A DNA stretch of 55,722 bases from Candidatus Pacearchaeota archaeon (lineage in GTDB: Archaea; Nanobdellota; Nanobdellia; Pacearchaeales; UBA284), in assembly GCA_025058615.1 (NCBI GenBank), contig JANXDM010000001.1:1-55722 (forward strand), in the 5' to 3' direction. Below the pieces are notes generated by a model. That model saw only the letters and a program-made list of their open reading frames with translations, had not been told where the DNA came from and did no database searches. Below, piece after piece: positions 16,740 to 51,188 of the stretch. Numbering within the stretch: the first letter of the stretch is position 1; the number at the start of each line of letters is the position of its first letter. Both the position numbers and the translations under genes were made by a program.

Positions 16740-17170
16740 TTTTCGTTTCTATTTCTTAAATTTTTGTGTTTATAAATTTTTCTGTAATTTGTAATTAAAG
16801 GGGTGTGGGAGTTTTTTTCAATAACAACACATTTATTAATATAATTTTCAATACAATTGAAAAAAAGAGTTGAGAAAAGAGAATGGTATTAAATAAAATC
16901 GATTACCACTGACCCCTTTTTTTCTTATGGAAAAATTTATAAACTGTTAGTTGTCTTCGGCTTTTTTTATAAAGTTTATAAATTTTTATATACTATGAAA
17001 TATATAAAAAAATAGACATTTTAAAAATTGAAATACATACGAAGAAATGGTTAACAATTTATTTCTTATGGAGCTAAATATAAATTAAAAATTTGCATGC
17101 GAAACAAAGGTGTGAAAGTGTTTACTTTAGGATAAAAATCTTTTTAAAACAACCACTTTTATTTTCAAAC
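16740..17170. promoter_or_regulatory. Candidate replication origin (oriC) and orc1/cdc6 promoter region
   Basis: 431-bp non-coding, extremely AT-rich spacer directly upstream of orc1/cdc6. Inverted AAAGGGGT(G/C) boxes at 16797..16805 (+) and 16911..16919 (-). Direct TTTCTTATGGA repeats at 16921..16931 and 17062..17072 bracket an almost pure A/T stretch. Confidence 0.4.
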
Positions 17171-18406: not shown

Positions 18407-18407
18407 T

Positions 18408-19934
18408 ATGATGAATGTAGTTCAAGAATTAATGGCGAAAGGTTATTTGATCGAAACAAATTTCTTGAAATCAGATATTTTAGAACAACTTTTAAAGTTG
18501 GATAAGGATCTATTTTTTGAATTAATTTTTTCTATGAATCCCCCTAAAATAATAAACAAAAATTTTTTTATAAAGACCATGCCTTTATTAGTAGAAAAAT
18601 TAAAGAAGTATCAAAAAGAAGAAACTTTTCAAATTGCTTCTTATTTTTCCGAAAAATACTTGAAGAAAGAAGAAAAAAAAGAAGAAGTTTTTGAAGAATC
18701 AAATAATTTAGATATAATACAAGAGTATGATGTAAAGGCAAGAAAAATAGAGGTGGAGGATTTTGTAGAATATTTTCGTTCTAGGTATAAATTCTTCAAA
18801 AATATTTTACAAGAAAGGATAGAAAACATAGTTAGTATAGGAAAAATTTTCGGAAACAGAAGAAATATTTTTGTGATAGGTATAGTTTACGATAAAAAAT
18901 ATACTAAAAATAAAAATATACTTTTAGAATTGGAAGATCTGAGTGGGAAAATTGTTGCAATAGTAAATAAAGACAAAAAAGAAGTTTTCGAAAAAGCTTC
19001 TTCTGTTGTTCTTGATGAAGTTATCGCTGTTAAAGCTTCGGGAAATAGAGAAGTGTTGTTCGTGGAAGATATAATTTTTCCAGATATTATTTTGAAAGAA
19101 AAAAAATATGCAAAAGAGGAAGAATATGCTATTTTCATCGCGGATTTACATATAGGTTCTAATAAATTTTTAGAAGAGAATTTTCTCAAATTTATTTCTT
19201 GGATTAATGGTAAGATTGGAAATGAAAGACAGGAAGAAATAGCAAAAAAAGTAAAATATCTTTTTATTGTTGGCGATCTTGTGGATGGTGTAGGAATCTA
19301 CCCTAATCAAGAAAAAGAACTAAAGATTAAAGATATTTACGAACAATACAAGTATTGTGCAGAATTGTTAAAAAAAATAAGAAAAGATATAAAAATTATT
19401 GTTTGCCCTGGAAATCACGATGCCGTAAGACTTTTAGAGCCGCAACCAAAATTCAATCAAGAAATCATTGATATTTTTAATTCAGAAAATATCTTTTTTA
19501 CGACAAATCCTTCTTTAGTTAATATAGGAAAAACAAAAAATTTCGAAGGATTTAATGTTTTACTTTACCATGGAAGATCTTTGGATTATTACATAGACAA
19601 AATAGATTTTTTGAGATTATCAAATGCAAAATTAGATCCTGCGCTCGTTTTAGAATTTCTTCTTAAAAAAAGACACTTGGGCCCAGCACATGCAAGTACA
19701 AACATCCTTCCAGTGGAAGATGCTCTTGCTTTAAAAAAAATACCAGATATAATAGTTACGGCTCATGTTCACAGAAGCGCGGTATTGAATTATAACAACA
19801 TTTTAGTCATTTCATGTTCTTGTTTTCAATCTAGAACTTCTTACCAAGAAAAATTAGGCCATGAGCCAGACCCGTGTAAAATTTGTTTGTTTAACTTAAA
19901 AACAAGGAAATTGAATATTTTAGATTTTAGTTAA
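18408..19934 (+). CDS. dp1: DNA polymerase D (Pol II) small subunit DP1
   Basis: Mre11-like phosphoesterase motifs IFIADLHIGS, FIVGDLVDG, CPGNHD, YHGRS, TAHVHR. Starts 1 nt after the cdc6 stop. Confidence 0.9.
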   Translation: MMNVVQELMAKGYLIETNFLKSDILEQLLKLDKDLFFELIFSMNPPKIINKNFFIKTMPLLVEKLKKYQKEETFQIASYFSEKYLKKEEKKEEVFEESNNLDIIQEYDVKARKIEVEDFVEYFRSRYKFFKNILQERIENIVSIGKIFGNRRNIFVIGIVYDKKYTKNKNILLELEDLSGKIVAIVNKDKKEVFEKASSVVLDEVIAVKASGNREVLFVEDIIFPDIILKEKKYAKEEEYAIFIADLHIGSNKFLEENFLKFISWINGKIGNERQEEIAKKVKYLFIVGDLVDGVGIYPNQEKELKIKDIYEQYKYCAELLKKIRKDIKIIVCPGNHDAVRLLEPQPKFNQEIIDIFNSENIFFTTNPSLVNIGKTKNFEGFNVLLYHGRSLDYYIDKIDFLRLSNAKLDPALVLEFLLKKRHLGPAHASTNILPVEDALALKKIPDIIVTAHVHRSAVLNYNNILVISCSCFQSRTSYQEKLGHEPDPCKICLFNLKTRKLNILDFS

Positions 19935-20012
19935 TTTTTTGGTTGCAAAATTTTAAAAAATATAATAAAAACAAAGAAAAATTTTTATAAAAAGAAACAA
20001 CATATTCGTAAA

Positions 20013-23000
20013 ATGTCTCTACAGAGTTATTTCGAAGAAATAGAAAGGAAAGTAAAGAAAGCTCTAGAAATAGCAGAAAAAGCCAGAATCAAAGGAATGG
20101 ATCCAAAGGAAAAAGTAGAAATAAATTTTGCAACTACGTTAGCACAAAGAGCAGTTGGATTAGTTTCCCTTGCATATCCACAACTAAAGGATTCTAGAAT
20201 AGAACATAGAATAAGGGAGTTAGAAGAAGAATATGGGTTTTTGGATCCTGCTGTGGCATTGAAAATTGCAGAAGAAGTTGCGAAAGAAAAATTTTGTAAA
20301 TTCCGTAGTTTGATAGAAGCAATAGAAGCCGGCGTAAAACTAGGGTTTGCTTACTTAACGCTGAGTGTTGTCGTTTCCCCTATAGAAGGCCTAACACATA
20401 TAAAAACAAAGAAAACAAAAAGTGGAAAAGAATATCTTGCTGCATATTATTCTGGACCGATAAGATCGGCGGGCACTACAATGGCAAGTTTTTCTTTGGT
20501 GATAATAGATCATCTAAGAGAGATTTTTGGTTTCGCAAAATATGATCCTACGGAGGAAGAAATTCGTCGTGGGATTACAGAAGTTTATGATTATCACGAG
20601 AGAATCGCCAATTTACAATATTTAGCATCTGAAGAAGAACTCGACTTTCTTTTGAGAAACATACCAATACAAATAGATGGTCTACCGACTGAAGAAGAAG
20701 AAGTCAGCAATTACAAAGACTTAGAGAGGATAGAAACAAATTTTATTCGTGGAGGTTTCTGTCTTGAACTTTCAGAGGCTTTAGCACAAAAAGCTAGCAA
20801 ATTAATCCCTCGAATAAAAAAGTTGCGAGAAAAAGGTTTCAAGCTTAGTGAATGGGATTTCTTAGAAGAGTTTGTAACTTTGCAGAAAAAAGTTAGAAAA
20901 GAAAAAAAAGAAGAAGCAGAAGATATTTACATCAAAGAAGCGGTTGCTGGAAGACCGATTTTTGCGCATCCTTCTAGGAGTGGGGCTTTTAGGTTGCGTT
21001 ACGGAAGATGTAGAACAAGCGGATATAGCGCTGTTGCTTTGAATCCAGCTACGATGAAACTTTTAGAAAATTTTGTTGCAATAGGAACCCAACTAAAGTT
21101 GGAAAAACCTATGAAAAGCGCAGTGGTAAGTGTTTGCGATACTATAGACGGACCTATAGTCAAGCTGAAAGATGGTTCTGTAAAAATATTAAAAACTAAA
21201 GAAGAAGCAGAAAATTATAGTAAAGATGTAGAAGAAATCCTTTATCTTGGGGATATTTTAATTTCTTACGGAGATTTTTATGATAGAAACCATGTTTTGT
21301 TGCCTTGTGGTTATTGTGAAGAATGGTGGAACGCTGAAATAAAAGAAACTTTGAAATATAAAGAGAAAAAAATCGAAATTCCAAAAAAAATATCTTTAAG
21401 AGAAGCTATAGAAATAAGCGCTTCTTTTGGAGTTCCTCTTCATCCACAATTCACTTTTTTCTGGTCTCAAATAACTAAAGAACAATTTTTTTCTTTAGTT
21501 AGGTGGTTAAAATCTGGAGAAATTCGTGAAAGAAAATTTGTCTTACCCTTTTCTAGTTTTGAGAGAGAAAAATGGAAAGACGCCAAAAGAGCTTTAGAAA
21601 TTATAGGCGCAGAACACAAAGTCACAACAGCAAATGTTGTTTTGGAAGAAGAAACGTGGAAAGCACTTGCTTTGAATCTTGGTTTAGAGGAAAATTTCAA
21701 AGAAAAAATAGAAAAAATTTTATCTTCTGAGGATTGTGATTCTAATCCTTTAGAAATCGTTAATAAGTTCAGCAAGTTCAAAATAAAAGACAAGGCTGGA
21801 ACTTTTATAGGGTGTAGGATGGGAAGACCCGAGAAGGCAAAACCGAGAGAACTTACAGGGTCTCCTAATGGATTGTTTCCAGTCGGAGAAGAAGGGGGAA
21901 AGACTAGGAGTTTGCAAAACTCATTAGAAATTGGGTTCGTGAAAGCAGATTTTCCAATTTTCTTTTGTGAAAAATGCAACAAAGAAACAATCTACCCAGT
22001 CTGTGAAATTTGTTCAGAAAAAACAAGAAAATTATTTTATTGTGTTAAATGTGGGAAACTTTTAAAGACAGATCTTTGTAACATACATGGAAAAGCACAA
22101 CCTTTTTGTGAGAAGAAGATAGATATAAAACATTATTTCGAAATTGCTCTAAAAAAAATCAATTCTACCGGAAATCAAATAAACCCAAAACTTGTTAAAG
22201 GAGTGAAAGGGACGAGTTCTGAAGGGCACATGGTAGAAAATTTATGCAAAGCGATTTTGAGGGCTGCGTTTGGACTTCATGTTAATAAAGACGGTACTAT
22301 TCGTTTTGATGCGACCGAACTTCCGATTACCCATTTCAAACCTAAAGAAATTAATGTTGGTGTAGATAAATTAAGGGAGTTAGGTTATTTATATGATGTG
22401 GAAGGTAAAGAATTAACAAACGAAGAACAGCTCTTAGAAATTAAACCATGTGATGTTATTTTACCTTGCTGTCCCGAATCTCCAGACGAAACAGCAGATC
22501 ATTTCTTCGTTAGAGTGGCGCAATTTATAGATTTCTTGCTGGAAACTTTTTATGATTTAGAACCTTTTTATAAAATAAGGAAAAGAGAGGATCTTTTGGG
22601 ACATTTACTCATAACCATAGCACCGCATAATGCAGCTGGGGTTGCTGCAAGAATTATAGGTTTTAGCAATTTACAAGCCTTCCTTGCTTCTCCTTTTTTG
22701 CATGGGGCGATGCGCAGAGATTGTGACGGCGATGAAGCAGGGATGATGTTGTTGCTCGATGCTCTGTTAAATTTCTCTCGAGATTTTATTCCAGCCCATA
22801 GGGGGGCTACACAAGATTGCCCTATTGTTTTGAATGCAAGATTGCGCTCTAATGAAGTTGATGAAATGGTTTATAACATAGACATAGTAAAAGAATACCC
22901 TCTTGAATTCTATATGGCTGCAGAAAAAGGAATGATGCCGCGTGATGTTAAGATTTTACAAGTTTCCGATAGGGTTAGATTAGGTGATGAGGCTTTTACT

Positions 23001-23474
23001 AATCTTTTTTACACACATGAAACTCCTAGAATCGACAATGGAGTATTATGTAGCGCGTACAAGAGTCTTGCAACAATTCCTGAAAAAGTAGCAAAACAAA
23101 TGGAACTAGCAAAAAAAATAAGAGCTGTCGATAGTAACAATGTCGCCGCGCTCATTCTCGAAAAACATCTTCTTAGAGATATAAAAGGAAACTTTCATAA
23201 ATTTACAAGACAACAATTTAGATGTGTGCAATGTAACGAGAAATATCGAAGGCCCCCACTGGCAGGAAAATGTTTGAGGTGCAACGGGAGAATAGTTTTT
23301 ACAATCGCAGAAGGATCTATTGTTAAGTATTTAGAATTGGCAATGAAACTGGCAAAAGAATTTAAAATTTCTAATTATTTACAACAAAACATCCAACTAC
23401 TCAAACAGAATATAGAAAGTGTTTTTGGAAAAAAGAACGAAAAACAAGAAAAACTAGTAAGTTTTTTTTCATGA
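20013..23474 (+). CDS. dp2: DNA polymerase D (Pol II) large catalytic subunit DP2
   Basis: 1153 aa. CRMGRPEKAKPRE, internal Cys clusters, C-terminal zinc module FRCVQCNEKYRRPPLAGKCLRCNG. Length gives no sign of an intein. Confidence 0.95.
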   Translation: MSLQSYFEEIERKVKKALEIAEKARIKGMDPKEKVEINFATTLAQRAVGLVSLAYPQLKDSRIEHRIRELEEEYGFLDPAVALKIAEEVAKEKFCKFRSLIEAIEAGVKLGFAYLTLSVVVSPIEGLTHIKTKKTKSGKEYLAAYYSGPIRSAGTTMASFSLVIIDHLREIFGFAKYDPTEEEIRRGITEVYDYHERIANLQYLASEEELDFLLRNIPIQIDGLPTEEEEVSNYKDLERIETNFIRGGFCLELSEALAQKASKLIPRIKKLREKGFKLSEWDFLEEFVTLQKKVRKEKKEEAEDIYIKEAVAGRPIFAHPSRSGAFRLRYGRCRTSGYSAVALNPATMKLLENFVAIGTQLKLEKPMKSAVVSVCDTIDGPIVKLKDGSVKILKTKEEAENYSKDVEEILYLGDILISYGDFYDRNHVLLPCGYCEEWWNAEIKETLKYKEKKIEIPKKISLREAIEISASFGVPLHPQFTFFWSQITKEQFFSLVRWLKSGEIRERKFVLPFSSFEREKWKDAKRALEIIGAEHKVTTANVVLEEETWKALALNLGLEENFKEKIEKILSSEDCDSNPLEIVNKFSKFKIKDKAGTFIGCRMGRPEKAKPRELTGSPNGLFPVGEEGGKTRSLQNSLEIGFVKADFPIFFCEKCNKETIYPVCEICSEKTRKLFYCVKCGKLLKTDLCNIHGKAQPFCEKKIDIKHYFEIALKKINSTGNQINPKLVKGVKGTSSEGHMVENLCKAILRAAFGLHVNKDGTIRFDATELPITHFKPKEINVGVDKLRELGYLYDVEGKELTNEEQLLEIKPCDVILPCCPESPDETADHFFVRVAQFIDFLLETFYDLEPFYKIRKREDLLGHLLITIAPHNAAGVAARIIGFSNLQAFLASPFLHGAMRRDCDGDEAGMMLLLDALLNFSRDFIPAHRGATQDCPIVLNARLRSNEVDEMVYNIDIVKEYPLEFYMAAEKGMMPRDVKILQVSDRVRLGDEAFTNLFYTHETPRIDNGVLCSAYKSLATIPEKVAKQMELAKKIRAVDSNNVAALILEKHLLRDIKGNFHKFTRQQFRCVQCNEKYRRPPLAGKCLRCNGRIVFTIAEGSIVKYLELAMKLAKEFKISNYLQQNIQLLKQNIESVFGKKNEKQEKLVSFFS

Positions 23475-33337: not shown

Positions 33338-35617
33338 TTATTTCTTTTTTAATTCTTTTTTAAACCAATCTTCCCACCTTTTAAACACTTCTTTACCTCT
33401 TGGGACGCCTATTTCTTCTCTTACTTTTTCGCAAATCTCATGGAAGGCATTATTACATTTGACGACCCAAGGCGCTTCTAGTATCTCTTGTTGTTTCAAA
33501 GAAATACTCATATTTACCATAGCTTCTTTTATTTTTGCTCTGAGCAATATGTTGTCCCATACAGCATCCCAAGAACCCGCCCATTCTTTTACATTTGAAG
33601 CTATACTTTTCAGAACTTCAGATTCCCCGTTTCTGAAGTCGTCTGTTGCTATTAACTCATCTTTTGTCACGTCATATTTCATCAAGTCTAAAAAACCTTT
33701 TTCAGCTAAAGGATCTATTTGCCAATGTTTTCTTACTTCAGCTATTTCTAAGACGCGACGCCACCTATGCAAGCCGTCTGGACTTTTTATAGGATTTGCT
33801 ATTATTATTATATCTGTAGCTTTGAAGCTTGTTGCTGGAACTTTGAGGTCATTAACAACACGATCGAAAACACCATAAGGACTAGCTCCGTGTATAGTTC
33901 CAGCTACGACATTTGCGAGGGCTCCAACACGCATAGCTTCATAAAGTGCGAGGGCTTCTACACTTCGTACTTCTCCTACAATAAGACAAGAATCTCCTAG
34001 TCTTAGACTTGTTCTTATTCCTTCGTCGGCTGCAAGTTCTGTGCTTTCCCTTGTTAGTGCTTCTCTTACTTTCATTCTGAGAATGTTGTATCCTAGTTCA
34101 CGCATAATATCGACAGGCAATTCCATAGTGCCTTCTATTACTATTATTCTATAGAGCGGCATTATTTCTAACATGCATGCCCCAAGCAAAGATGTTTTTC
34201 CAGAGCTTCTTGTCCCTGCTATTAGCATGGTTCTTCCACCATCGATGAGAAAAGAAAGTAGGCCGGCTGCAAGGGGATTTAACATTTTGTTTTTTATGAA
34301 CAAAGGTAATGTCCAAGGTTTTTCTCTATGTCTTCTGAAAGCATAAGCTAAACCGTAAGGACTTAAAGGTTGTTGTATTACTGCAACCCTTGCTCTTGCC
34401 GTTCCTATTATGAGTTCTGTATCTAGAACAGGATTCGCTTCATCCAGAGGTCTACCAGAAATCATTCTGAATTTGGCTGCCCAAGATTCTGCATCTTCGT
34501 GGCTTGGTATTATATTAGTATCGCATTCGTCATAATCTTGATGTCTCACAAAAATAGGGGCCAATCCTACCGGGCTATTTACTACAATATCTTGCAGCCT
34601 TTCGTCTTGCAAGAGTACTTCTATCAAGCCAAAACCTATTGTATGTCTCACAAGAATTAATGCAAGTTTGTTTATAGTTTTGTAGTTTACATCAATTTTT
34701 TTTGCTTTAGATATTTCTATCAATAAGTCCCGTGCAACGTTAAAAAAAACTTGTCTTATTCTTGCAGGATCTGTAAATTCTTCTGCTTTAGGTTCATGCT
34801 CTAGTAAAATGTTCCTTACATCATTGACCAATGCTTGTAATTCTTCTTTCAGTGAGAATTCTGGAGGACTTAGATGGTAAAGATATTTTACCTTTCCTGG
34901 AATTTTCAGTATGGAAACCCTGCTTCTGTCGTACTCAGGCCCTATTTCATACTCATCAACTATTTCTGCATCTATCGGCATAGAGGCCATTAATCGTGTA
35001 AAAGTGAAATTTGGAACGATTTCAGGCCTGAAAAATAAAGAATATAAGTTTCTATTTTTGTAATTGTCTAACTTTTCTTCTACCGATTTTATAAGCTTTG
35101 TTTTTCCTAAAAGAGAAAAAATTTTATTTAGAATTTTTAAGTATTTTTGTTGACATATTTTACATTCTGGAGTGAAAGTTTTTTCCGTTAATTGCTCTTG
35201 TTCTATTATTTTTTTTGTTTCTATATAACAAGCTATTGGGTCTTGCTTTAGCAAAGTCAGTACAAGGTACCTTATTCCTTCATATCTTTCTGGCAGACAT
35301 CTTTTGCACGAGTAAGGCGCAAGAACTTCTGCAGAAAAAATTTTTTCATGTTTGACCAAGGTTTCGTAGACTTGTGCTATTTCCATCAAAAGAGAAACTT
35401 GTTTGAAATCATAGCTGTAGTTCCTTTGCTGAACAAAAACTATTCTTGAGACATTTGGATTTTCTGTCAATGCATCTATTACGCGGGACATACAAAAAGC
35501 AGAAGAGGCCAGATCAGGGACGAGAGGAGCACCTAAAAAATTAATATACATAACATCTTGCCCTGCTTCTCTTACGATTTCGTACTCGTACAATTTAGTC
35601 TCTTTTTTAAAGATCAT
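33338..35617 (-). CDS. Type II/IV secretion-family ATPase (PilB/FlaI/VirB11-like) with about 330-aa N-terminal extension
   Basis: Walker A IAGTRSSGKTSLLGA, Walker B/Asp-box LIVGEVRSVEA, His-box GTIHGASP. The N-terminal extension has two CxxC pairs (CKRC, CKIC). Confidence 0.85.
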   Translation of the reverse strand: MIFKKETKLYEYEIVREAGQDVMYINFLGAPLVPDLASSAFCMSRVIDALTENPNVSRIVFVQQRNYSYDFKQVSLLMEIAQVYETLVKHEKIFSAEVLAPYSCKRCLPERYEGIRYLVLTLLKQDPIACYIETKKIIEQEQLTEKTFTPECKICQQKYLKILNKIFSLLGKTKLIKSVEEKLDNYKNRNLYSLFFRPEIVPNFTFTRLMASMPIDAEIVDEYEIGPEYDRSRVSILKIPGKVKYLYHLSPPEFSLKEELQALVNDVRNILLEHEPKAEEFTDPARIRQVFFNVARDLLIEISKAKKIDVNYKTINKLALILVRHTIGFGLIEVLLQDERLQDIVVNSPVGLAPIFVRHQDYDECDTNIIPSHEDAESWAAKFRMISGRPLDEANPVLDTELIIGTARARVAVIQQPLSPYGLAYAFRRHREKPWTLPLFIKNKMLNPLAAGLLSFLIDGGRTMLIAGTRSSGKTSLLGACMLEIMPLYRIIVIEGTMELPVDIMRELGYNILRMKVREALTRESTELAADEGIRTSLRLGDSCLIVGEVRSVEALALYEAMRVGALANVVAGTIHGASPYGVFDRVVNDLKVPATSFKATDIIIIANPIKSPDGLHRWRRVLEIAEVRKHWQIDPLAEKGFLDLMKYDVTKDELIATDDFRNGESEVLKSIASNVKEWAGSWDAVWDNILLRAKIKEAMVNMSISLKQQEILEAPWVVKCNNAFHEICEKVREEIGVPRGKEVFKRWEDWFKKELKKK

Positions 35618-36729: not shown

Positions 36730-37689
36730 TCAAGGTTCCTCGTCAGTTATTCCTTTTTCTGTTATAAAAAAAATAGTTTCTGCTTCCGGCAAGTTTGGAG
36801 AATCTATCATTCGTGCTATTCTTGCATCTTTTTTTCCTTTTCTCAAGTAGATTCTATAAGTACTGGCGTGTGCGACTATATGCCCCCCTATCGCTCTGGT
36901 TGGATCGCCGAACATCATAGAAGGATCGGCCATGACTTGATTAGTAACATAAACAGCAAGGTTGTATGTTTCTGCAAGTCTCATTAATGAATGTAAATGT
37001 CTGTTTATGCGTTGCTGTCTTTCAGCAAGTTGCCCTCTTCCGGTAAATTCTGCCCTGAAATGTGCAGTAAGGCTGTCGACTATTATTAGTTTTATTGGTT
37101 CTCCATTTTTGAGGAGTTCTGAAATTTTTTCAACCAAAAGAATCTGATGGTCAGAATTGAAAGCACGCGCAACAAAAATATTTTTCAAAGTTTTTTGGAA
37201 ATCTAATCCAAGGGCCTCACACATTTGCTTTATTCTTTCTGGTCTAAAAGTAGACTCTGTGTCAATCCATACTACTTTTCCGTTTGCTCCTTTTTTTTCT
37301 AAAGGTAGTTGCGCATTTACTGCAAGCTGATGTGCAAGTTGGCTTTTTCCAGAGCCGAAGGCACCATAGGTTTCTGTTATTGCCCTTGTTTCTATTCCCC
37401 CCCCAAGTAATGCGTCAAGATTTTTAGAACCAGTAGTTATTTTTATTACTTCCTGTCTTCTTTTTAAGTATTCAACAGCATTTTCGAATTCCAGATGAAG
37501 CATCTTTCTTGCAGCCGCTATGGCTTTTCTTGCAGCACTTTCAGTTATATCTGCGATTGTGCTCAATTCTGCGGGGTTCATGACAGCAATACTCATCACA
37601 TCCACATAACCAGCTTCTTCTAGTTTTGAAGCCGTTGCCGCCCCTATTCCTGGAAGATCTGTAAGTTTTATTTCTTTTTCTTTTCCCAT
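36730..37689 (-). CDS. radA: DNA repair and recombination protein RadA
   Basis: N-terminal Hh[21 protein letters not shown], Walker [15 protein letters not shown], Walker [13 protein letters not shown]. Track ORF extends to 37707; ATG 37689 (MGKEKEIK..) preferred. Confidence 0.95.
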
Positions 37690-37738
37690 AATAATTATTC
37701 TATACATTGGCTTTTATAAACATTATTCTTTTCTAGCA

Positions 37739-38209
37739 CTATAAAAAATTAGATAATTTATGAAAAGTCATCAACGAGACTAACACAAAAAATACAAGAA
37801 ATAACAAGTTTTCTAAAAGAGAGCCCGTTCTTAAGAATCCTTTTACTTTTACTTTCAAAGGCCAAAAAAGATAAACTCCTTTTATAGTTAGGGAATCAAG
37901 AAGCAAATGGGAAGAGTATCCTGTAGCGAATCCCAGTATTAATACTGGAGAAATTTTTAACAAAAAAAGTGTCAAAGAAAAAATAATCACAAAAGTAAAA
38001 CTTTGAAGGAACCCCCTGTGCCCAAAAAATAAATTGATTAAATGGCTTAGTAAGATTCTTTTTCCTATTTTTGATTTTGGTAGATCTAAGTCAAGAACCA
38101 CCGAAGAAACAACTGTAGAGATAAAAAAAAGAAATTTATTTTTTATTACTAAGGGATCAAGCAGCAAAAAGAGAAAAATTGAAAAAACAAGATGGGTCCT
38201 AAAAAGCAT
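37739..38209 (-). CDS. YdjM/DUF457-like membrane-bound metal-dependent hydrolase
   Basis: 156 aa. N-terminal MLFRTHLVFS, internal HRGFLQS and HLLLDSLT..GV.LFWP, as in the DUF457 family. Confidence 0.55.
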   Translation of the reverse strand: MLFRTHLVFSIFLFLLLDPLVIKNKFLFFISTVVSSVVLDLDLPKSKIGKRILLSHLINLFFGHRGFLQSFTFVIIFSLTLFLLKISPVLILGFATGYSSHLLLDSLTIKGVYLFWPLKVKVKGFLRTGSLLENLLFLVFFVLVSLMTFHKLSNFL

Positions 38210-39170
38210 TTTTTTTACTCAGTTCCTTTATTATTTCTTCTGGATTTACTTCTGAAAAATCATTGACTACGAATTCTTCTCTATCAAATAAAGCATTTTT
38301 TCTCATACGTCCTGCAAATATATATTCTGTTCCTAATATTTTTTGTTTTTTTTCTATTATTATTTCTGGATTTTGTAAATTTTCTATACTTTCTGCTAAA
38401 AATTTCAATGCTGCTTCATGAAAAAACAATATTCTTACGTTAGCAGATCCGTCGTCTGCTATTCCACTTAAAATTATTCTTTTTTTTGGTATCACGAGAC
38501 CATGCTTTATACACAATGTTTTATCATTTTCGAAAGTCGTTTTCATGCTGCACTCAGGGCATACGTTAAAAAAAGAAGGATTAAATAGCTGCACGACCGT
38601 TGCTCTTATTAGTGCATTCTCGTTTTTTCTTAATTCTGATATTTTTGAAATTTTTTTATTATTTGTTCTTACTATTGTTTCTATCTTTTTGTCGCTCAAT
38701 ACAATTTCAGAGCTACTCGTCAAATGTAATTCTTTTGTTGCAATTCCTTTTACATCTGCTTTTTTTATTTCTATTACACTTCCCTCTTTTATAATTTCTT
38801 TTTTTAAAAGCTCTATATGTTTCGTATCCCAAACTACTACTTTTATACTACCTGTTGAATCTGCAATCTCAAAAGAAGCAACTTCCAATTCCTTTCCTCC
38901 TCTTACAAATTTTCTTATTGGATCTATCGCTATGATTTTCCCTGAAACATTTACTTTTTTCATTCCAGAAAGCAAATCTATTATTTGTAATTCTTTTTCT
39001 TGGAAGGAAACACCCAATTCGGAAGCAACTATTTGTGCTGCTCCTTCATCACTTATCAATCCAGAAAATAATGCTTTTTTTGCTTCTACTTTCCTCTTGA
39101 CTTCTTCTATACTTGTATTAGAAAGTTTTGCTATTTTTTCTAAGATTTGTTCTATAGGGGCTTTTATCAT
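38199..39170 (-). CDS. rpa: Replication protein A (RPA)-like ssDNA-binding protein, two OB folds with zinc motif
   Basis: N-terminus LISDEGAAQIVASELGV. OB1 VNVSGKIIAIDPIRKF..LEVASFEIADSTGSIKVVVWD. OB2 interrupted by CPECSMK..CIKH zinc element. Confidence 0.75.
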   Translation of the reverse strand: MIKAPIEQILEKIAKLSNTSIEEVKRKVEAKKALFSGLISDEGAAQIVASELGVSFQEKELQIIDLLSGMKKVNVSGKIIAIDPIRKFVRGGKELEVASFEIADSTGSIKVVVWDTKHIELLKKEIIKEGSVIEIKKADVKGIATKELHLTSSSEIVLSDKKIETIVRTNNKKISKISELRKNENALIRATVVQLFNPSFFNVCPECSMKTTFENDKTLCIKHGLVIPKKRIILSGIADDGSANVRILFFHEAALKFLAESIENLQNPEIIIEKKQKILGTEYIFAGRMRKNALFDREEFVVNDFSEVNPEEIIKELSKKNAF

Positions 39171-44601: not shown

Positions 44602-46752
44602 TTAGACTATTATGGATCCGACCGCTATTATTGCAAGTAGCCCCAATAGAGCGGTAGCAACTAATGCTGCCAAGAAATACAAAATTATTGCTGTTAATAA
44701 ATTTTTACTGCTTTCGTATTTTTCTCCTAATCTGTCCTCCCCATTTTCTATTGTGACTAGTGTAGATGTCAATATTAGCACTATTTCTATTAGATAAATC
44801 CCTATTATTATTTGCAACCAATATGGTGGGATCATTTTTACAACGTTGAACATGCTTGTTATTGCTCCTACAGTGCCTAACCCGACGAGTTCATGTGTTG
44901 CTGTTAATTCTCCTGTTTCAATCAAAATTTGGAGCTTGCTCAAAATCAAAGTTATCATTGCTGCAAGACCAGTAACAACCGCAGCCAACAAAGGAGCTAA
45001 AAAATTCATGTTGCTTTTCATACTACTTGCTATATCTGCTAACAAATCTTTTAGTCTCTCAGAAACTTTGTGGATATTTTTAACATACTCGCTTATAGCC
45101 ATCATTGCTCTTGCTGCAATACCTAGTCCTTTTTTTACCGCTTCGACAAGGATTTGCATACTTGTTCTTATCAAATCTGAAGGGTAATAATTTATAGCCC
45201 CACGTGTTTTGTTGAAAATTGCTTGTTCTAAAGACATTCCTAATTGTTGAATGTTTGTGCTTACTATCGTGAAGAAACCTTCTGTTGCTGTTCCTCTTAT
45301 GCTATTAGCGACCCTTCCAAAAGCCATTTCTGCTGGAATGCCGTCTGCGAGTCTATTTCCTAATTGAAAAATTGCAGAACTGAATTCTTGTTCTAGTTTT
45401 TTTGTTTCTTCTCTTGTTTTTATTAATTTTTGTGTTTTCAGTTTGTACGCTGTAGAGAAGAAAATTGCAATTCCTAAAGTAAAAAATAACCCGAGAATTA
45501 CAGCAAAAAATCCAAAAGGTCCAACGCTCTTACCAGTCTCTTGATCTTGTTTGAAGTCAAATGCGGGCTGTCCGAGAAAACTAATGTTGTAGTCTCTTTC
45601 TAATCCTAAGATGTGAGGAAGGTCTGTGTAGTGAAAAAGCAAAGGAAGCATGCCAATAAATAAAAAAGGAAGTGCGAAGAAAAAAGCTTTTATGTATACT
45701 GTGTTATCTTTGTAGTATTTATAATTTGGGTTTCTTTCTAGGAGTTCTGTTTCCCCATATCCTGCTGGCCTTCTTGCCAGTACTTGGGAAGTCATGTAAA
45801 AAACGAAGAATGGTAATATTATATTGAACAAAATAGCTACGTGGTACCATTTAATTGCTCCTTGTAAAAGAGTAGAAGCCAAAGGGAGCAACGCTAGGCC
45901 TAAAGTAGGTAATACTATCCCAAGCATGTAAATGTTTGTTATTGGAGATTTTACTTCGTGTGTAAAATGTATCATTTTTTCATACATGCCGTCGAGAATA
46001 ACTTGCATAGCTTTTTCCAAGATTGCTATTCTTCTTTCTTCTACGGGTTCATAGAGCGAAGATTCTATGAGATGCATCGCTTCTATAAACTCCGGATTGT
46101 ATTTTCGCCATTTTTCCAAGTAAGCATCTAAAGCATCTTTTATTGTCGCATATTTTGCAGTTTCTACATCGTAGAAAATTTTTTTGAAATCAAGCGCGAG
46201 AGGCGGCTGTAAGTTGTTTGCTGCAAACCTTACCGCCCGTTCGAGGTTGCTTGTGTGGCGCATGTAAATAACGATGTAGAGTATTGCCGGAACCATCTGC
46301 GATGCTGCTTTGAGACGCCATTTTTGTGCAAGTCTGAATGGCAAAGTGTTTAAATAATAAAATAAGAAAAGAGTAACAAACATCAGCAAGAAAAAAATAA
46401 GGAGAGCATTATTTAGATTATTCGTAAATAAAAAAATTGCAACGCAAATCAAAGCAGAAACTATAAAGCCTAGTAGCAGAGAAAATATCGCAAGCCCAGC
46501 AGCTTCTCCAGGCTCTATTTCCAAATGTGCCGTTTCTATTGCTTCTTGTAATGCGATTGCATCTTTTTCTTTTAGTTTTATTTTTATTATACGCCCTACA
46601 TTTTTACACGCTTTTTCATATCTGGAGGGGATCAAGGTCGATTCTTCTTTGAACTTCAAGTATTCTTTAGAATAGTCGGTTGTTTCTTCGAAGTCTAACC
46701 TTATTTTTGATTTCAACTCTCGCAAAAAATCTTTAGTGTTCGGTTTTACCAT
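44602..46752 (-). CDS. FlaJ/TadC/PilC-like polytopic platform protein (T2SS-F family, long form)
   Basis: 716 aa. Two cytoplasmic helical domains, each followed by TM bundles (..ANNLQPPLALDFKKIFYDVETAKY.., ..SSAIFQLGNRLADGIPAEMAFGRVANS..). First gene of the pilin cluster. Family call rests partly on context. Confidence 0.6.
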   Translation of the reverse strand: MVKPNTKDFLRELKSKIRLDFEETTDYSKEYLKFKEESTLIPSRYEKACKNVGRIIKIKLKEKDAIALQEAIETAHLEIEPGEAAGLAIFSLLLGFIVSALICVAIFLFTNNLNNALLIFFLLMFVTLFLFYYLNTLPFRLAQKWRLKAASQMVPAILYIVIYMRHTSNLERAVRFAANNLQPPLALDFKKIFYDVETAKYATIKDALDAYLEKWRKYNPEFIEAMHLIESSLYEPVEERRIAILEKAMQVILDGMYEKMIHFTHEVKSPITNIYMLGIVLPTLGLALLPLASTLLQGAIKWYHVAILFNIILPFFVFYMTSQVLARRPAGYGETELLERNPNYKYYKDNTVYIKAFFFALPFLFIGMLPLLFHYTDLPHILGLERDYNISFLGQPAFDFKQDQETGKSVGPFGFFAVILGLFFTLGIAIFFSTAYKLKTQKLIKTREETKKLEQEFSSAIFQLGNRLADGIPAEMAFGRVANSIRGTATEGFFTIVSTNIQQLGMSLEQAIFNKTRGAINYYPSDLIRTSMQILVEAVKKGLGIAARAMMAISEYVKNIHKVSERLKDLLADIASSMKSNMNFLAPLLAAVVTGLAAMITLILSKLQILIETGELTATHELVGLGTVGAITSMFNVVKMIPPYWLQIIIGIYLIEIVLILTSTLVTIENGEDRLGEKYESSKNLLTAIILYFLAALVATALLGLLAIIAVGSIIV

Positions 46753-46828
46753 CTTTTTAAAAACGAAGGAAAAACATTATAAAAATTTTTGCAACAATAT
46801 TTAAAACCAAGAAATCTATTTGTATAAA

Positions 46829-49309
46829 ATGGGTTTTTGGATTAATAACTTCATAGGACTAGAAGGAAAAAGCAAGAGAGCAAACAGATTTATTCTAAAT
46901 TTTTATTATTTTCCTTCTGCTGAAGAAGAACCAAAAAGCATAAAAGTTTTCTTAAAACAAAATGTAAAAATACCTTCCTGTTTTTTGAAGTATGAAAATC
47001 TAGAAAAAATAATCAAGAGAGTGGAAAAACTAGCTACAAAGTTAAGAAAATATGTTTTTAATGACTATTACGTTCTCGAGGTAGAATTACCTTATGAAAA
47101 AAATAATATAAAAGAACTTCCGGATGTTTTTCAAAAAGGAAGCTATGTTAAGATCTTTAAGTACAGGGGCTTTTATCCAGAAAGGAAAGTTTCTCTCGAT
47201 GCAAAGGTAAAAAAGATTTTTGAGGAGATTTCCAAATTTGAGAAAAAAGAAGGGGAGAATAAAGAAAATTCTGCAAGAGAGATAGATTTTTTGCTTAAAC
47301 AGATAAACAAAGAAAATAAGTTTTATTTCAACGTCGAAACAAAAAATTATGAAGTAGAGCTTAATTCTTTGGATGGCATCTTTTTCGAAGAAAAATTTTT
47401 GACGGAAAAAGATTTTTCGCTTGCTAGAAAACTTTATTTAGATTTAGAGAAGCCGTTGTGGAAAAAAGAAGAGGAAAAAGAATTAATAAAAAAAAGGAAA
47501 GAATTGTTGAGGAAGCTATCAAAAGAAAAAAATGCAGAAAATACTAAGTCTATAAAAAGAGAAATAGAAGAAATAGAAAAGAAACTGACTATCAATACGA
47601 AATTTGGAACTATCAAGCTTTATGAGGATTTGTTCGATGCAAAAATTTCTTTTGTCTCTACCATCTGGGAAAACATAAACGGAAGAACTATAAAAGAACT
47701 TTATGTATGGGACCCTCTTTCTGATATAAATGAAGAATATGTTAATGGATTTTTTATTAAAAAATTCAAAACAGAAAAAGAGCTTATAGAAGCGCTTACA
47801 ACTTCTATAAAGAATAGGAAGCCCCTAGTATGTATAGGCCATAATGAAGCTTATGACATCACACAACTCAGATTTGCTTCAGAAGAGACAAGAGCAGGAA
47901 AATTTGATATTGCTGTTAAAGATATTGTTCCAAGAAGAGATTTTGTTAGAGATTTTCTTCAGAGATTAAGAGAAGATTTGATATACATAGACACTTTATG
48001 GCTAAACAGGATTTTCTTTCCTTTCCTTTCTTTCAGAAGCTTGAAAAGAAGTTTAAAACTAGAAGATGTTGCTAAATTTCACGGAATTCCTTTCGAGAAA
48101 AAAATAAAACACGAAGAATTAAGAGATTATGAAATAAAAAGATTGGCTGGAAACGAAACAGAAAGAAAAGAGGCATTCAGAGAACTTGCGGATTACACGA
48201 CCAAAGACATAGAAATAATTTATGAAATTTCAAAAAAAATCCCTTTTTCTTTACTTGTAAAATTGAAAAATGTAATGCCTTATTTGACCTTTACAGAACT
48301 TGCTTTTTCTACAAGCTGCATCAAGAAATATTTTGAAAAAAAACATTTTGATTTGTTCCATAATTTAGAGTATTATGGAAAAAAACAAAAAAAGAGGGAA
48401 GAAAAATTACAATTATTCAAAAGAGTTTTCAAAAGAAAAAAGAAAGAACTTCTTGAATGGGCTGGAATACAAGTAGAAAAAGAAAATTATGATGGAGCCT
48501 ATGAAATATATATCCCCTTTGAAGAATTCATCTTAGATTGTATTTTCAGAGCATGTCCTGAATTCGAGAAAATTTACAAAAGTTTTGAAAATAAAGAAAC
48601 AAACAAAGTGAAAGAAAACATAGAAAAATTCGGTTTCCTTCAGTATATGAAAGTTCTTGCTCAACAAATCCTTACAGATTATTATTGGGTGAGAAAATGT
48701 GAGAAAGAAGCCAAAAAATTCTTAGGAAAAATCCCTCTTTTTGCTCTGCAGCAAGAAAATTCAAATCTTTCAATCTTGGAAAAAAAAGCTAGAAAGAATG
48801 GCCTCGAAAGAGAACTAAGAAATAGTTTTTCTACTCTTGATTACTCCTTAGAATGTTTCTATGATCTTTATAATTTTCTAGATGCAAAAACAAAAAAAGA
48901 ATTAAAAAATAAACCAGAAATAGAAGCCCTTTTTATGCTGTACAGAAAGAAGGAGTTGGGTTTAAAAGAAAAAAAGGAAAAATTGTTGAGAACATTTGTT
49001 GGTAGCTTCAAAAAATTTCTAGAAACTTCTGAGATGCTTGTAGAAAAAATGAAGATTCCAAAAGAAATTTTTTATGCTCTATACTACCAAGAAAAATCCA
49101 AAAAAGAAAAAAAGAGATTTGAGAAAAAATACAATCTCAAAGTAGAAGAGCTGACAAGAAAGATAGCGATTTCTTATAAAAACTTAAAGAGAGAACTTGA
49201 ATTTCTTGGAAAAGTGGTAGGAGTTAGAGGAGATCTTTTGTTTTTGAAACCCTATGATGGAAAAGAAATAGAGAAAAGTAAATTTTTTTATATAATAAGA
49301 AAGTTTTAA
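46829..49309 (+). CDS. Family-B DNA polymerase-like protein with DEDDy exonuclease motifs and degenerate palm motifs
   Basis: Start set to ATG 46829. Candidate Exo I LYLDLEK, Exo II GHNEAYDITQL, Exo III YTTKDIEIIYEI. Candidate pre-motif-A YDGAYEIY, then ILDCIFRACPEF, KVLAQQILTDYYW and STLDYSLE where DxxSLYPS, KxxxNSxYG and YGDTDS are expected. Confidence 0.4.
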   Translation: MGFWINNFIGLEGKSKRANRFILNFYYFPSAEEEPKSIKVFLKQNVKIPSCFLKYENLEKIIKRVEKLATKLRKYVFNDYYVLEVELPYEKNNIKELPDVFQKGSYVKIFKYRGFYPERKVSLDAKVKKIFEEISKFEKKEGENKENSAREIDFLLKQINKENKFYFNVETKNYEVELNSLDGIFFEEKFLTEKDFSLARKLYLDLEKPLWKKEEEKELIKKRKELLRKLSKEKNAENTKSIKREIEEIEKKLTINTKFGTIKLYEDLFDAKISFVSTIWENINGRTIKELYVWDPLSDINEEYVNGFFIKKFKTEKELIEALTTSIKNRKPLVCIGHNEAYDITQLRFASEETRAGKFDIAVKDIVPRRDFVRDFLQRLREDLIYIDTLWLNRIFFPFLSFRSLKRSLKLEDVAKFHGIPFEKKIKHEELRDYEIKRLAGNETERKEAFRELADYTTKDIEIIYEISKKIPFSLLVKLKNVMPYLTFTELAFSTSCIKKYFEKKHFDLFHNLEYYGKKQKKREEKLQLFKRVFKRKKKELLEWAGIQVEKENYDGAYEIYIPFEEFILDCIFRACPEFEKIYKSFENKETNKVKENIEKFGFLQYMKVLAQQILTDYYWVRKCEKEAKKFLGKIPLFALQQENSNLSILEKKARKNGLERELRNSFSTLDYSLECFYDLYNFLDAKTKKELKNKPEIEALFMLYRKKELGLKEKKEKLLRTFVGSFKKFLETSEMLVEKMKIPKEIFYALYYQEKSKKEKKRFEKKYNLKVEELTRKIAISYKNLKRELEFLGKVVGVRGDLLFLKPYDGKEIEKSKFFYIIRKF

Positions 49310-49369
49310 AAAACTTTAAAATAGCAAAAAATATATAAATATTGATTTCCAAGGTTCAAGAAAGAAAAA

Positions 49370-49648
49370 ATGTTGAAGATATTGAAGATAAGTGAAGTGG
49401 TAGGGATGAAAGTATTTACAGATGGTGGGGATTTCATAGGGACTATTGAAGAAGCTAACTTGTTGGGGAACAGAGTTGAAAGTTGGCGTGTTAGGGTTGC
49501 AAAAAATTCTAGCGTAGGGCCTTATTTAAGCGGAGCAAAAGGTTTGATTATTCCACACCAATATATCAAAGCGTTTGGAGAAGTTGTAATTATAAGTAAG
49601 ACAGCAATACCAAAAGAGGAAGCAGAATCTATAGAAGAAATAGAATAA
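49370..49648 (+). CDS. PRC-barrel domain protein
   Basis: 92 aa. VVGMKVFTDGGDFIGTIEEANLLGNRVESWRVRV...LIIPHQYIKAFGEVVIISK. Confidence 0.7.
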   Translation: MLKILKISEVVGMKVFTDGGDFIGTIEEANLLGNRVESWRVRVAKNSSVGPYLSGAKGLIIPHQYIKAFGEVVIISKTAIPKEEAESIEEIE

Positions 49649-49654
49649 ACAAAG

Positions 49655-50122
49655 ATGAATGGATTTATCCCACCCTTCATCTATAATGTACTTCTACCTT
49701 TTTTACTTGTCTTTGCTGTTGTTTTTGCAATTCTTGAGAAAACCAAAGTTTTAGGAGAAAAAAGAAATATTAACCTAATAGTTTCTTTTTGCATAACTTT
49801 TATTTTTGTAGGCGTTCCAGCAATGGTAAATGTAACTTTGCGTTTGATACCTGTGGTTTCTTCGATAATAGTAGTTTTGCTTTGTTTACTTCTACTTTTT
49901 GGATTTGCTGGTTTGAGGGTGGAAGAAAACAAAACCTTAAGGACAATCCTTGGAGTAATTCTAGGAATTGCCTTAGCTGTAGTTGTGTTCTGGGCTTCTG
50001 GAGCAATGGACAAGTTCAGAGGAACAAAAATTTCAGAAGCAACTCTTAATTATATAATTTTTTTTAGCATTTTCGTCTTGGCTATTGTTGTAGTTTTGGT
50101 TGGTGGGAAGAAAAGGGAATAA
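49655..50122 (+). CDS. Small 4-TM membrane protein, paralog 1 of 3
   Basis: Shared N-terminal motif NVLLPFLLVFAVVFAILEKTKVLGEKRN. 155 aa. Confidence 0.6.
   Translation: MNGFIPPFIYNVLLPFLLVFAVVFAILEKTKVLGEKRNINLIVSFCITFIFVGVPAMVNVTLRLIPVVSSIIVVLLCLLLLFGFAGLRVEENKTLRTILGVILGIALAVVVFWASGAMDKFRGTKISEATLNYIIFFSIFVLAIVVVLVGGKKRE
49684..49742 (+). repeat. 59-nt perfect direct repeat, copy 1
   Basis: taatgtacttctaccttttttacttgtctttgctgttgtttttgcaattcttgagaaaa, identical to 50242..50300 (compared base by base). Confidence 0.9.
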
Positions 50123-50158: not shown

Positions 50159-50701
50159 ATGGAAATATTATTACAGTATCATTGGTATTATGGTGGTCCT
50201 ATGGAACAGATGATTTCTCAATGGGCCCAACTCGGAGTTTTTAATGTACTTCTACCTTTTTTACTTGTCTTTGCTGTTGTTTTTGCAATTCTTGAGAAAA
50301 TAGACTTACTTAAAAATCGGGGAGTTCATGCTATCATAAGCCTTGCTGTAGGTTTTTTTACAATAGCAAATCCTTATGTAATCTCTTTTTTTCTTCCACT
50401 TTTTTCTAATCTTGGTCTTGGAGTTGCAATTCTAATTGCTCTTGTTGTTGTTTTGGGTCTTGCGATACATCCTGGAGAAAAAACGTGGAAAACTATTTTT
50501 TTAGTTATGGGGGTAATTATCTTTATAGTAGTTCTTGGTAAGGCAGGAATTTTTAATTACTTGAATATTTTTGGATATTGTGATTCTTATTGTCAAAGCA
50601 CAGTTGTTTTTTTTGTTATAGTTGGTCTTGCTGTGCTTGTCGCATTGCTTTATGGAAAAAAAGAAGAAGGAAAAATGATAGCAATACCTGCGGGAAAATA
50701 A
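50159..50701 (+). CDS. Small membrane protein, paralog 2 of 3
   Basis: ..GVFNVLLPFLLVFAVVFAILEKIDLLKNRG.. Start may be the internal Met at 50201. Confidence 0.6.
   Translation: MEILLQYHWYYGGPMEQMISQWAQLGVFNVLLPFLLVFAVVFAILEKIDLLKNRGVHAIISLAVGFFTIANPYVISFFLPLFSNLGLGVAILIALVVVLGLAIHPGEKTWKTIFLVMGVIIFIVVLGKAGIFNYLNIFGYCDSYCQSTVVFFVIVGLAVLVALLYGKKEEGKMIAIPAGK
50242..50300 (+). repeat. 59-nt perfect direct repeat, copy 2
   Basis: Identical to 49684..49742; flanking sequence diverges immediately on both sides. Confidence 0.9.
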
Positions 50702-50702
50702 A

Positions 50703-51188
50703 ATGGAGATGATAGATGTTTCGGCTGGTGTGACAATGTTCATGCCGGTATTCGCTTTTCTTCTTGTTTTTGCAGTCACATATGGTTTGCTTAGCAAAAC
50801 AAAAGTATTGGGAGAAAATAAATTTGTGCATATTCTTGTGAGTTTTGCTGTAGCAATAATTTTTTTGGCTTCTGCTAGCGCGATCCATTATGCAAAAGTT
50901 TCTGCGGGATGGTTTGCTGCTTTCATAATAAGTTTGCTTTTTATTGTTTTGATAGTGGGCCTTGTAAGAAAAAATCTTGAAGATATCATGACGAAAGGAT
51001 TCGCATGGTTCATAGTTATATCTTTAATTTTAATTTTCATATTTTCCGGAGCTTATGTTTTTCGTGATGTTATAAACACCTACCTAAGCAGGCCGAGAGC
51101 AATAATTTTTGATCCTACTATTTTTGGTGTTGTAATCCTAGTTGGAGTTACGATTTTTGCCGCATGGCTAATGACAAGAGAAAAATAA
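50703..51188 (+). CDS. Small membrane protein, paralog 3 of 3
   Basis: ..MFMPVFAFLLVFAVTYGLLSKTKVLGENKF.. has the same architecture but is divergent at DNA level. 1-nt gap to paralog 2. Confidence 0.6.
   Translation: MEMIDVSAGVTMFMPVFAFLLVFAVTYGLLSKTKVLGENKFVHILVSFAVAIIFLASASAIHYAKVSAGWFAAFIISLLFIVLIVGLVRKNLEDIMTKGFAWFIVISLILIFIFSGAYVFRDVINTYLSRPRAIIFDPTIFGVVILVGVTIFAAWLMTREK

Follow-up and report, generated by a model that had tools for sequence, protein, structure and literature searches.

A PolB-derived protein family of DPANN archaea with a conserved DEDDy exonuclease site and no polymerase motifs, predicted to act as a 3'-5' exonuclease

Inactivation is known from several family-B DNA polymerases (PolBs): PolB2 and the C-terminal half of Pol epsilon are examples, as are Pol alpha and Pol zeta with their dead exonuclease domains. 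In these cases the exonuclease site has been lost, either alone or together with the polymerase site. The protein family described here is unlike these, as it has kept the exonuclease and lost the polymerase. It was recognised through an 826-aa protein encoded on the + strand of the window, by which the whole analysed stretch of 55,722 nucleotides is meant (Candidatus Pacearchaeota archaeon, GenBank assembly GCA_025058615.1, contig JANXDM010000001.1, positions 1 to 55,722). The polymerase motifs and the thumb are absent from the family and the exonuclease residues are invariant, and the gene product is probably a DEDDy 3'-5' exonuclease that descends from a PolB and carries a non-catalytic relic module. 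A preliminary description, made from the letters of the window, had called it family-B polymerase-like with intact exonuclease motifs and degenerate palm motifs, a view borne out by matches to the Pfam model PF03104, profile-profile alignment (hhalign), structure comparison (Foldseek), the invariant DEDDy residues and the finding of polymerase motifs in 0 of 54 relatives.

PolB2 (Dpo2) has both active sites disrupted and is encoded in an operon with arCOG07300, a helical protein of ~90 aa, and an inactivated RadA paralog (Makarova et al., 2014; PMC4104785). Like the present family it is an archaeal PolB paralog with replaced polymerase catalytic residues that coexists with another replicase; however, its exonuclease residues are disrupted and its polymerase fold is recognisable by sequence, and this family is the opposite on both counts. 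PolB modules were likewise kept after the loss of polymerase catalysis in the C-terminal half of Pol epsilon and in polinton-like elements, where an inactivated protein-primed PolB is fused to helicases, but in both cases the exonuclease has been lost as well and the modules are scaffolds, whereas in this family the exonuclease residues are the most conserved. With canonical PolBs (Thermococcus/Pyrococcus PolB, the yeast Pol alpha core, T4/RB69 gp43 and E. coli Pol II) the family shares the N-terminal and DEDDy domains, with Exo I, Exo II, Exo III, a strand-end Asp and a conserved Lys in the same order. It differs from them in lacking DxxSLYPS, KxxxNSxYG, DTD, the polymerase domain PF00136 and the thumb, and in having two additions, a helical hairpin that follows Exo I and a basic helix (residues 518-544). 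A functional analogy only is offered by POLIB of Trypanosoma brucei (PMC9731263), a polymerase-family protein with dominant exonuclease activity; it belongs to another polymerase family (family A), its polymerase domain is still there, and homology is limited to the DnaQ-like fold. A Pol II-like B7 PolB has been reported in Woesearchaeota and Pacearchaeota by a survey that gathered PolBs via the polymerase domain, so that the present family would escape it (Kazlauskas et al., 2020; PMC7544198). No description of this exonuclease/PolB-like family turned up in literature searches; it is best classed with the inactivated PolB paralogs, as a variant of them, and not as an active family-B polymerase.

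Single-sequence searches with the 826-aa protein found nothing in Pfam, in NCBIfam or, with phmmer, in the Protein Data Bank (PDB). A word-indexed search of 5.8 billion proteins returned 31 relatives at 29-55% identity, and an exhaustive phmmer search of 1.84 billion cluster representatives returned 80 clusters (at 50% identity), 63 of them with E <= 1e-10, down to ~24% identity; a second large-database search with a 54-sequence profile added one fragment only. The 54-sequence alignment, to which the counts out of 54 refer throughout, covers the diversity of the family at 18-55% identity to the query. All named records of the family are annotated as 'hypothetical protein', all named organisms that carry it are metagenome-assembled genomes (MAGs) of Pacearchaeota, Woesearchaeota or Nanoarchaeota (GCA_038840265.1, GCA_965231065.1 and GW2011_AR19 among the carriers), and the family, which is conserved over a large DPANN radiation, is present in 16 GTDB species representatives.

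The N-terminal and exonuclease parts of the protein contain the following features.

46829..49309, + strand: whole coding sequence, 826 aa plus stop, ATG start
46829..47425, + strand: N-terminal domain (residues 1-199), mixed beta/alpha and confidently modelled, within the region superposing on PolB structures
47426..48238, + strand: PolB-type DEDDy 3'-5' exonuclease domain (residues 200-470), from PF03104 in homologs, hhalign and conservation
47432..47452, + strand: Exo I, LYLDLEK (residues 202-208), D205 and E207 in 54/54, local hhalign alignment
47468..47584, + strand: K/E-rich helical hairpin after Exo I (residues 214-252), helices 214-232 and 236-252 in the model
47837..47869, + strand: Exo II, GHNEAYDITQL (residues 337-347), with N339 and D343, from alignment and hhalign
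47990..48001, + strand: DTLW (residues 388-391), D388 at the end of a beta-strand, 54/54
48098..48100, + strand: K424, 54/54
48194..48229, + strand: Exo III, YTTKDIEIIYEI (residues 456-467), Y456 and D460 invariant

Only seven columns of the alignment are invariant (D205, E207, D388, L411, K424, Y456 and D460), D343 of Exo II is kept in 53 of 54 relatives, and residues 200-470 hold 10 of the 11 columns conserved at >= 90%. The four acidic residues and the Tyr thus occur in three ordered motifs, as in DnaQ-like DEDDy enzymes, and the predicted order of strands and helices fits an RNase-H-like fold. The preliminary description had given the three motifs in this order and spacing, and all the strings it quoted were located, the further ones being YDGAYEIY (residues 554-561), ILDCIFRACPEF (568-579), KVLAQQILTDYYW (608-620) and STLDYSLE (668-675). 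Its worry that a by-eye alignment might be coincidental is dispelled for the exonuclease motifs, since conservation of the Exo I-III acidic residues in the ortholog alignment it had proposed is far beyond chance. The K/E-rich insertion that it placed between Exo I and Exo II is the hairpin at 214-252, modelled at a predicted local distance difference test (pLDDT) score of ~90, whose start EKPLWKK..EK is invariant among close relatives. Of the two alternatives it left standing, retention of exonuclease activity only fits better than a structural relic, given where the most conserved columns lie.

Profile comparisons connect this domain to PolB. The Pfam model DNA_pol_B_exo1 (PF03104) is below detection on the window protein alone, and it matches 17 of 28 close relatives at E <= 1 and 5 of 10 distant relatives at E <= 0.01; in five relatives scanned individually it scores 24.7-27.6 bits against a curated cut-off of 23. 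No RNase D/T-type model appeared in the Pfam output for the relatives. The canonical side of the hhalign comparison consisted of four annotated PolBs, all from the Pol II/T4-like side (T4-like RB3 gp43, E. coli Pol II, halovirus HRTV-27 and cyanophage S-CAM1). Against these the family aligned over query residues 267-512 with 93.7% probability and an E-value of 1.8e-7 (the probability was 65% with a shallower family alignment), which places N339 and D343 on N214 and D219 of T4-like gp43, Y456 and D460 on its Y320 and D324, D388 on the strand-end Asp of PolB exonuclease domains ('ILD' strand end), and K424 within one residue of a conserved exonuclease-domain lysine, K299 of T4-like gp43. Exo I was aligned only locally (DIEKP against DIEVT of T4-like gp43, E 0.086), because the K/E-rich insertion breaks the global alignment there. 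Past Exo III, the alignment continues into a PolB-specific segment up to residue 372 of T4-like gp43, its end at query residue 512 lying 36 residues before gp43 motif A. A profile of 28 relatives searched against PDB sequences gave spurious matches only (molecule FD15, thioredoxin reductase and ice-binding protein) and no PolB. On the profile alignments, residues ~200-512 are homologous to PolB.

The predicted fold points the same way for the front part of the protein. The AlphaFold2 model of the 826 residues, built from a 28-sequence alignment, has a pLDDT of 88.2 and a predicted template modelling score (pTM) of 0.87, and a Foldseek search with it against the PDB gave 193 matches at E <= 0.001. 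The best 50 of these are all family-B polymerases, among them Pol alpha, archaeal PolB, Pol delta, Pol epsilon and the polymerase of African swine fever virus (ASFV), with E-values down to 1e-10 and template modelling (TM) scores of 0.36-0.44; the top 50 matches in BFVD are likewise all PolBs. A TM of ~0.42 over 826 residues is expected if roughly the N-terminal two-thirds superpose. When residues 470-826 (357 aa) were modelled alone (pLDDT 87.8), no Foldseek match reached E <= 0.001 and the best 50 included no polymerase, only helical bundles, channels and coiled coils at TM ~0.1, so that the PolB signal comes from the N-terminal and exonuclease domains together with the segment immediately behind them. 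Since the isolated C-terminal model finds no polymerase, the 700-790 aligned columns of the full-length Foldseek matches were rejected as a superposition of the polymerase domain. The profile and structure comparison with PolB that had been proposed as a check thus came out positive for the N-terminal and exonuclease domains and negative for the palm.

These results also bear on whether the protein could have arisen by fusion of a generic DnaQ-like exonuclease with an unrelated helical domain, its likeness to PolB being superficial. The C-terminal 357 aa without detectable likeness to any polymerase and the full-profile search of PDB sequences without a PolB would suit such a fusion, but a PolB-specific Pfam model scores above its curated cut-off in relatives, the hhalign alignment runs on past Exo III, a TM of 0.41-0.44 over 826 residues needs more than an exonuclease domain of ~270 residues, the top structural matches are all PolBs, and relics with the spacing of motifs A and B follow in the right order and in the right secondary-structure elements. 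A fusion of this kind is extremely improbable.

Behind the exonuclease domain, four features can be distinguished.

48239..49306, + strand: C-terminal module (residues 471-826, 356 aa), mostly helical with a small sheet, no detectable PolB polymerase similarity alone
48482..48523, + strand: possible motif-A strand relic (residues 552-565), from a by-eye spacing comparison
48620..48871, + strand: two long antiparallel helices (residues 598-633 and 645-681) in the model, in a fingers-like position
49208..49252, + strand: beta-hairpin (residues 794-808) with G801-D802 at its tip, the sole motif-C relic candidate

PF00136 gave no match in 38 proteins scanned, the C-terminal profile aligned by hhalign with the polymerase part of the four PolBs at 0.06% probability (local, global and greedy modes), and a sequence-profile search of the PDB with the C-terminal region found no polymerase. 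Motif A (SLYP or D..S[LIVM][YF]) in place, a strict motif B KxxxNSxYG and a motif C DTD/DSD at the terminal hairpin each occur in 0 of 54 relatives, and no acidic residue of the C-terminal half is invariant. The palm motifs proposed in the preliminary description did not survive comparison with relatives. D570 of its motif A candidate ILDCIFRACPEF is variable (D/E/P/S/G/K); its motif B candidate KVLAQQILTDYYW is unsupported, K608...Y618 lying in the first long helix; and in its motif C candidate STLDYSLE, D671 is R/K/N/E in relatives, the segment being missing in ~10 of 54 and lying inside a predicted long alpha-helix (H660-681), not a beta-hairpin.

Patterns with PolB-like spacing were found at other sites. 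Residues 551-565, with the family consensus KGxYxNVxEFYLPLE, are spaced like Pol II PGLYDSVLVLDYKSLYPS (G-x-[YW]-x-x-V-x-x-x-D), which puts Y561 (Tyr in 48 of 54) at the position of the catalytic Asp of motif A, where the predicted strand 558-561 ends; a greedy hhalign echo of this relic was non-significant and is not counted as evidence. In the second long helix, K674-x3-R678-S679-x-Y681 (KxxxRSxY, 32 of 54) has the exact spacing of motif B with Arg in place of Asn. About 110 helical residues (686-793) are inserted before the terminal hairpin, the tip of which has the family consensus GDY and which is followed by one further strand (821-825). At these sites the window protein reads E552, A557, LECFYDLY and GDL and lacks KxxxRSxY and GDY, and by this comparison it is more decayed than the family consensus. 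Some 120 residues around 634-755 are missing in several members of 677-765 aa and in several distant ones (P0026-P0029, P0055, P0086 and others); the deleted segment includes the second long helix with KxxxRSxY, and the exonuclease domain and the terminal GDY hairpin are kept. The shortest canonical PolBs have ~230 or more residues after motif C, and T4-like gp43 has 278 (D620 of 898 aa), versus 24 after D802 in the window protein, so that the thumb is absent. A C-terminal PIP box (PCNA-interacting peptide) was considered and rejected, as the model shows KIRxLExF as a strand of the terminal beta-sheet. Going by the by-eye patterns, the C-terminal half is probably a PolB relic; neither its sequence nor its fold identifies it as a PolB polymerase domain.

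Residual conservation in this half raises the question of whether the protein can still synthesise DNA at a highly non-canonical site next to its proofreading exonuclease; E559/E565 and D802, for instance, could form such a site, with the nucleotide bound by KxxxRSxY. E565 is invariant in the 28 close relatives and kept in 44 of 54 overall (G/A/P/Q in distant members), D802 is kept in 25 of 28 and 40 of 54 (N/F/R/A/P/S/Q/Y in distant members), KxxxRSxY has motif B spacing, and primer-independent PolBs manage with a single motif-C Asp (Kazlauskas et al., 2020; PMC7544198). Such a polymerase is nevertheless very improbable, given a Tyr at the motif-A Asp position, the lack of any invariant acidic residue in the C-terminal half, the absence of KxxxRSxY and GDY from the window protein and of the second long helix from several members, a chain that ends 24 residues after the hairpin and leaves no room for a thumb, and a C-terminal fold that is not recognised as a polymerase.

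A C-terminal module conserved without catalytic motifs could also be taken for a replisome scaffold like the C-terminal half of Pol epsilon, that is, a non-catalytic structural relic in which the exonuclease motifs would serve folding or DNA binding only; essential scaffolding by inactivated PolB modules is known from that very case (PMC7544198). This is improbable, since the DEDDy residues and K424 are kept (D343 in 53 of 54, the others in 54 of 54) down to 18-20% identity and the same residues are replaced in the known inactivated PolBs, namely PolB2, the Pol epsilon C-terminal half and Pol alpha (PMC4104785; PMC7544198).

Gene context was compared at 19 loci (including L002, L004, L011-L019 and L023, set against window positions 44602-49648). 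At 9-11 of the 19 the gene is flanked by rpS6e/eIF2-gamma (divergent) on one side and by aIF5B (convergent) on the other. This arrangement has been lost in the window and in its closest named relative (L026), and the setting between a membrane-protein gene and a PRC-barrel gene is particular to the window lineage and not a feature of the family. One distant member is carried on a 774-kb contig (GCA_965231065.1), the family was not found on IMG/VR viral contigs, and its contexts are chromosomal and of a housekeeping type.

DEDDy enzymes include RNA exonucleases such as RNase D and Rrp6, and the translation genes rpS6e, eIF2-gamma and aIF5B on either side of the gene at 9-11 of 19 loci would suit an RNA 3'-5' exonuclease of PolB descent, comparable to RNase D or Rrp6 and processing the 3' ends of rRNA, tRNA or mRNA. 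These neighbours are on the opposite strand and hence not co-transcribed with the gene, the synteny is absent from the window and from its closest named relative, and the PolB exonuclease domain is the sole family matched, with no RNase D/T-type Pfam model, which leaves an RNA-processing role hardly likely.

Read as a PolB-derived exonuclease, the protein would descend from a family-B DNA polymerase, and its gene would have been passed on vertically, on the chromosome, in DPANN archaea (Pacearchaeota, Woesearchaeota and Nanoarchaeota). Given the strict constraint on its N-terminal and DEDDy domains, it most likely hydrolyses nucleic acids at their 3' ends. By analogy with the family, D205, E207, D343 and D460 would bind the metals of a two-metal mechanism and Y456 would position the attacking water. 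The former polymerase half, without catalytic motifs and thumb, would have become a helical non-catalytic module that probably still grips DNA or a partner protein. We infer catalytic activity, a DNA substrate and a cellular role, and the protein may work in DNA replication or repair as an independent 3'-5' exonuclease that trims, for instance, mismatched or damaged 3' ends or flaps.

The replicase in this organism would be PolD, encoded 25 kb upstream, and the earlier assignment of PolD to 18408-23474 was confirmed as DP1/DP2. DP1 (18408-19934, + strand) keeps all five motifs of calcineurin-like phosphoesterases (ADLH, GDLVDG, GNHD, YHG and HVH), and the PolD proofreading nuclease is predicted to be active. 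A role as trans-proofreader forced by a dead DP1 is ruled out by these motifs, and a PolD that proofreads itself favours a repair or processing role over that of an obligatory trans-proofreader. A farther-reaching scenario, which we regard as doubtful, is that the ancestral replicative PolB of Pacearchaeota and Woesearchaeota was turned into a dedicated exonuclease, that PolD alone copies the genome, and that the relic is a trans-acting 3'-end editor or an Okazaki-fragment/repair nuclease in which the cleft of KxxxRSxY and the GDY hairpin would hold the primer-template without extension.

Several points weigh against a DNA exonuclease with a non-catalytic relic. With its DP1 motifs intact, PolD should proofread itself and not require an extra exonuclease. 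As DEDDy domains also act on RNA (RNase D, Rrp6), the DNA substrate is suggested by PolB ancestry only. The retention of E565, D802 and KxxxRSxY in most relatives, which the non-canonical polymerase also draws on, indicates that the C-terminal module has a selected function. Finally, the Foldseek similarity is one of E-values and TM scores.

As for the gene itself, the reading frame is open from a TTG at 46820, and the ATG at 46829 is taken as the true start because all relatives begin with MGFW; the stop is at 49309. Upstream lies a short spacer.

46753..46828: 76-bp AT-rich spacer, shared with the divergent membrane-protein gene, read from the sequence

TATA-like runs are found at both sides of the spacer, and TTTAAAA ~25 nt upstream of the ATG is a putative promoter element. 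The divergent arrangement across 76 bp had been noted correctly in the preliminary description, but its label of a pilus platform gene for the neighbour finds no Pfam support. The gene for this polytopic membrane protein occupies 44602-46752 (- strand), and its product has no T2SSF/FlaJ match in Pfam and only a sub-threshold VIT1 match (E 2.7e-4, 21 bits against a cut-off of 28 bits). A T2SSE-type ATPase is encoded elsewhere in the window, at 33338-35614.

The window is a segment of an archaeal chromosome of low GC content (~31%) that encodes Orc1/Cdc6 with PolD DP1 and DP2 (17093-23471) and, besides these, an Lhr helicase, RadA, an RPA-like protein, SRP54 and FtsY; the immediate neighbours of the 826-aa gene are genes for the membrane protein (715-716 aa) and a PRC-barrel protein. 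A PolB2-type operon with arCOG07300 and an inactivated RadA is absent around this gene, and the only RadA of the window is a full Rad51-type protein. This canonical RadA is encoded at 36730-37704 (Rad51-type Pfam match with E 4e-97), ~9 kb from the 826-aa gene, and together with an RPA-like gene of the oligonucleotide-binding (OB) fold, from which it is separated by a 156-aa open reading frame (ORF; 37739-38209), it forms the stretch 36730-39170 (- strand), ~8-10 kb upstream of the 826-aa gene.

Downstream, the PRC-barrel gene (49370-49648) precedes three tandem paralogous genes for small membrane proteins on the + strand (49655-50122, 50159-50701 and 50703-51188), which have an N-terminal segment of the LLPFLLVFAVVFAILEK type in common; the two of them that were checked gave no Pfam family above threshold. 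In the 560-bp intergenic region directly upstream of orc1/cdc6-DP1-DP2, an element of ~20 nt, AGTTTATAAATTTTTnT, occurs in three copies (16768-16795, 16925-16944 in inverted orientation, and 16974-17001), and these repeats look like the origin-recognition-box repeats of a replication origin.

Two further observations concern relatives in other genomes. In the Woesearchaeota MAGs JACQNH010000017.1 (L009) and JACPNH010000041.1 (L010) the ortholog is broken by one in-frame TAG (7276-7278), which falls exactly on the conserved Tyr codon of IFYP(Y)L and leaves ORFs of 424 and 396 aa; NCBI annotates the 424-aa product (P0053), which covers approximately the N-terminal half of the query. The sequence around the TAG is identical in both MAGs, and the TAG could be a pseudogene mutation, a shared assembly error or a stop codon that is read through. 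In addition, a gene for a PDDEXK_1 (Cas4/RecB-like) nuclease lies directly upstream of the ortholog and co-directional with it in the Pacearchaeota MAG GCA_038840265.1 (L026, 9168-9854), ~2.4 kb upstream on the opposite strand in L002 (2880-3668; the two versions are only weakly similar), and homologous ORFs are found several kb upstream in L014, L015 and L016. This linkage is absent from the window and hence was not used.

If the protein is active, it would be an unrecognised nuclease in the very small DNA-maintenance toolkit of reduced-genome DPANN archaea, and it would provide a natural experiment on what the N-terminal and exonuclease module of a PolB does alone. Should the conversion of an ancestral PolB be true, the family would be a natural and widely distributed 'exo-only' PolB and so the reverse of Pol alpha, Pol zeta and PolB2. 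The family also shows how far a polymerase domain can drift when it no longer catalyses, a point of importance when replicative polymerases are counted in metagenomes.

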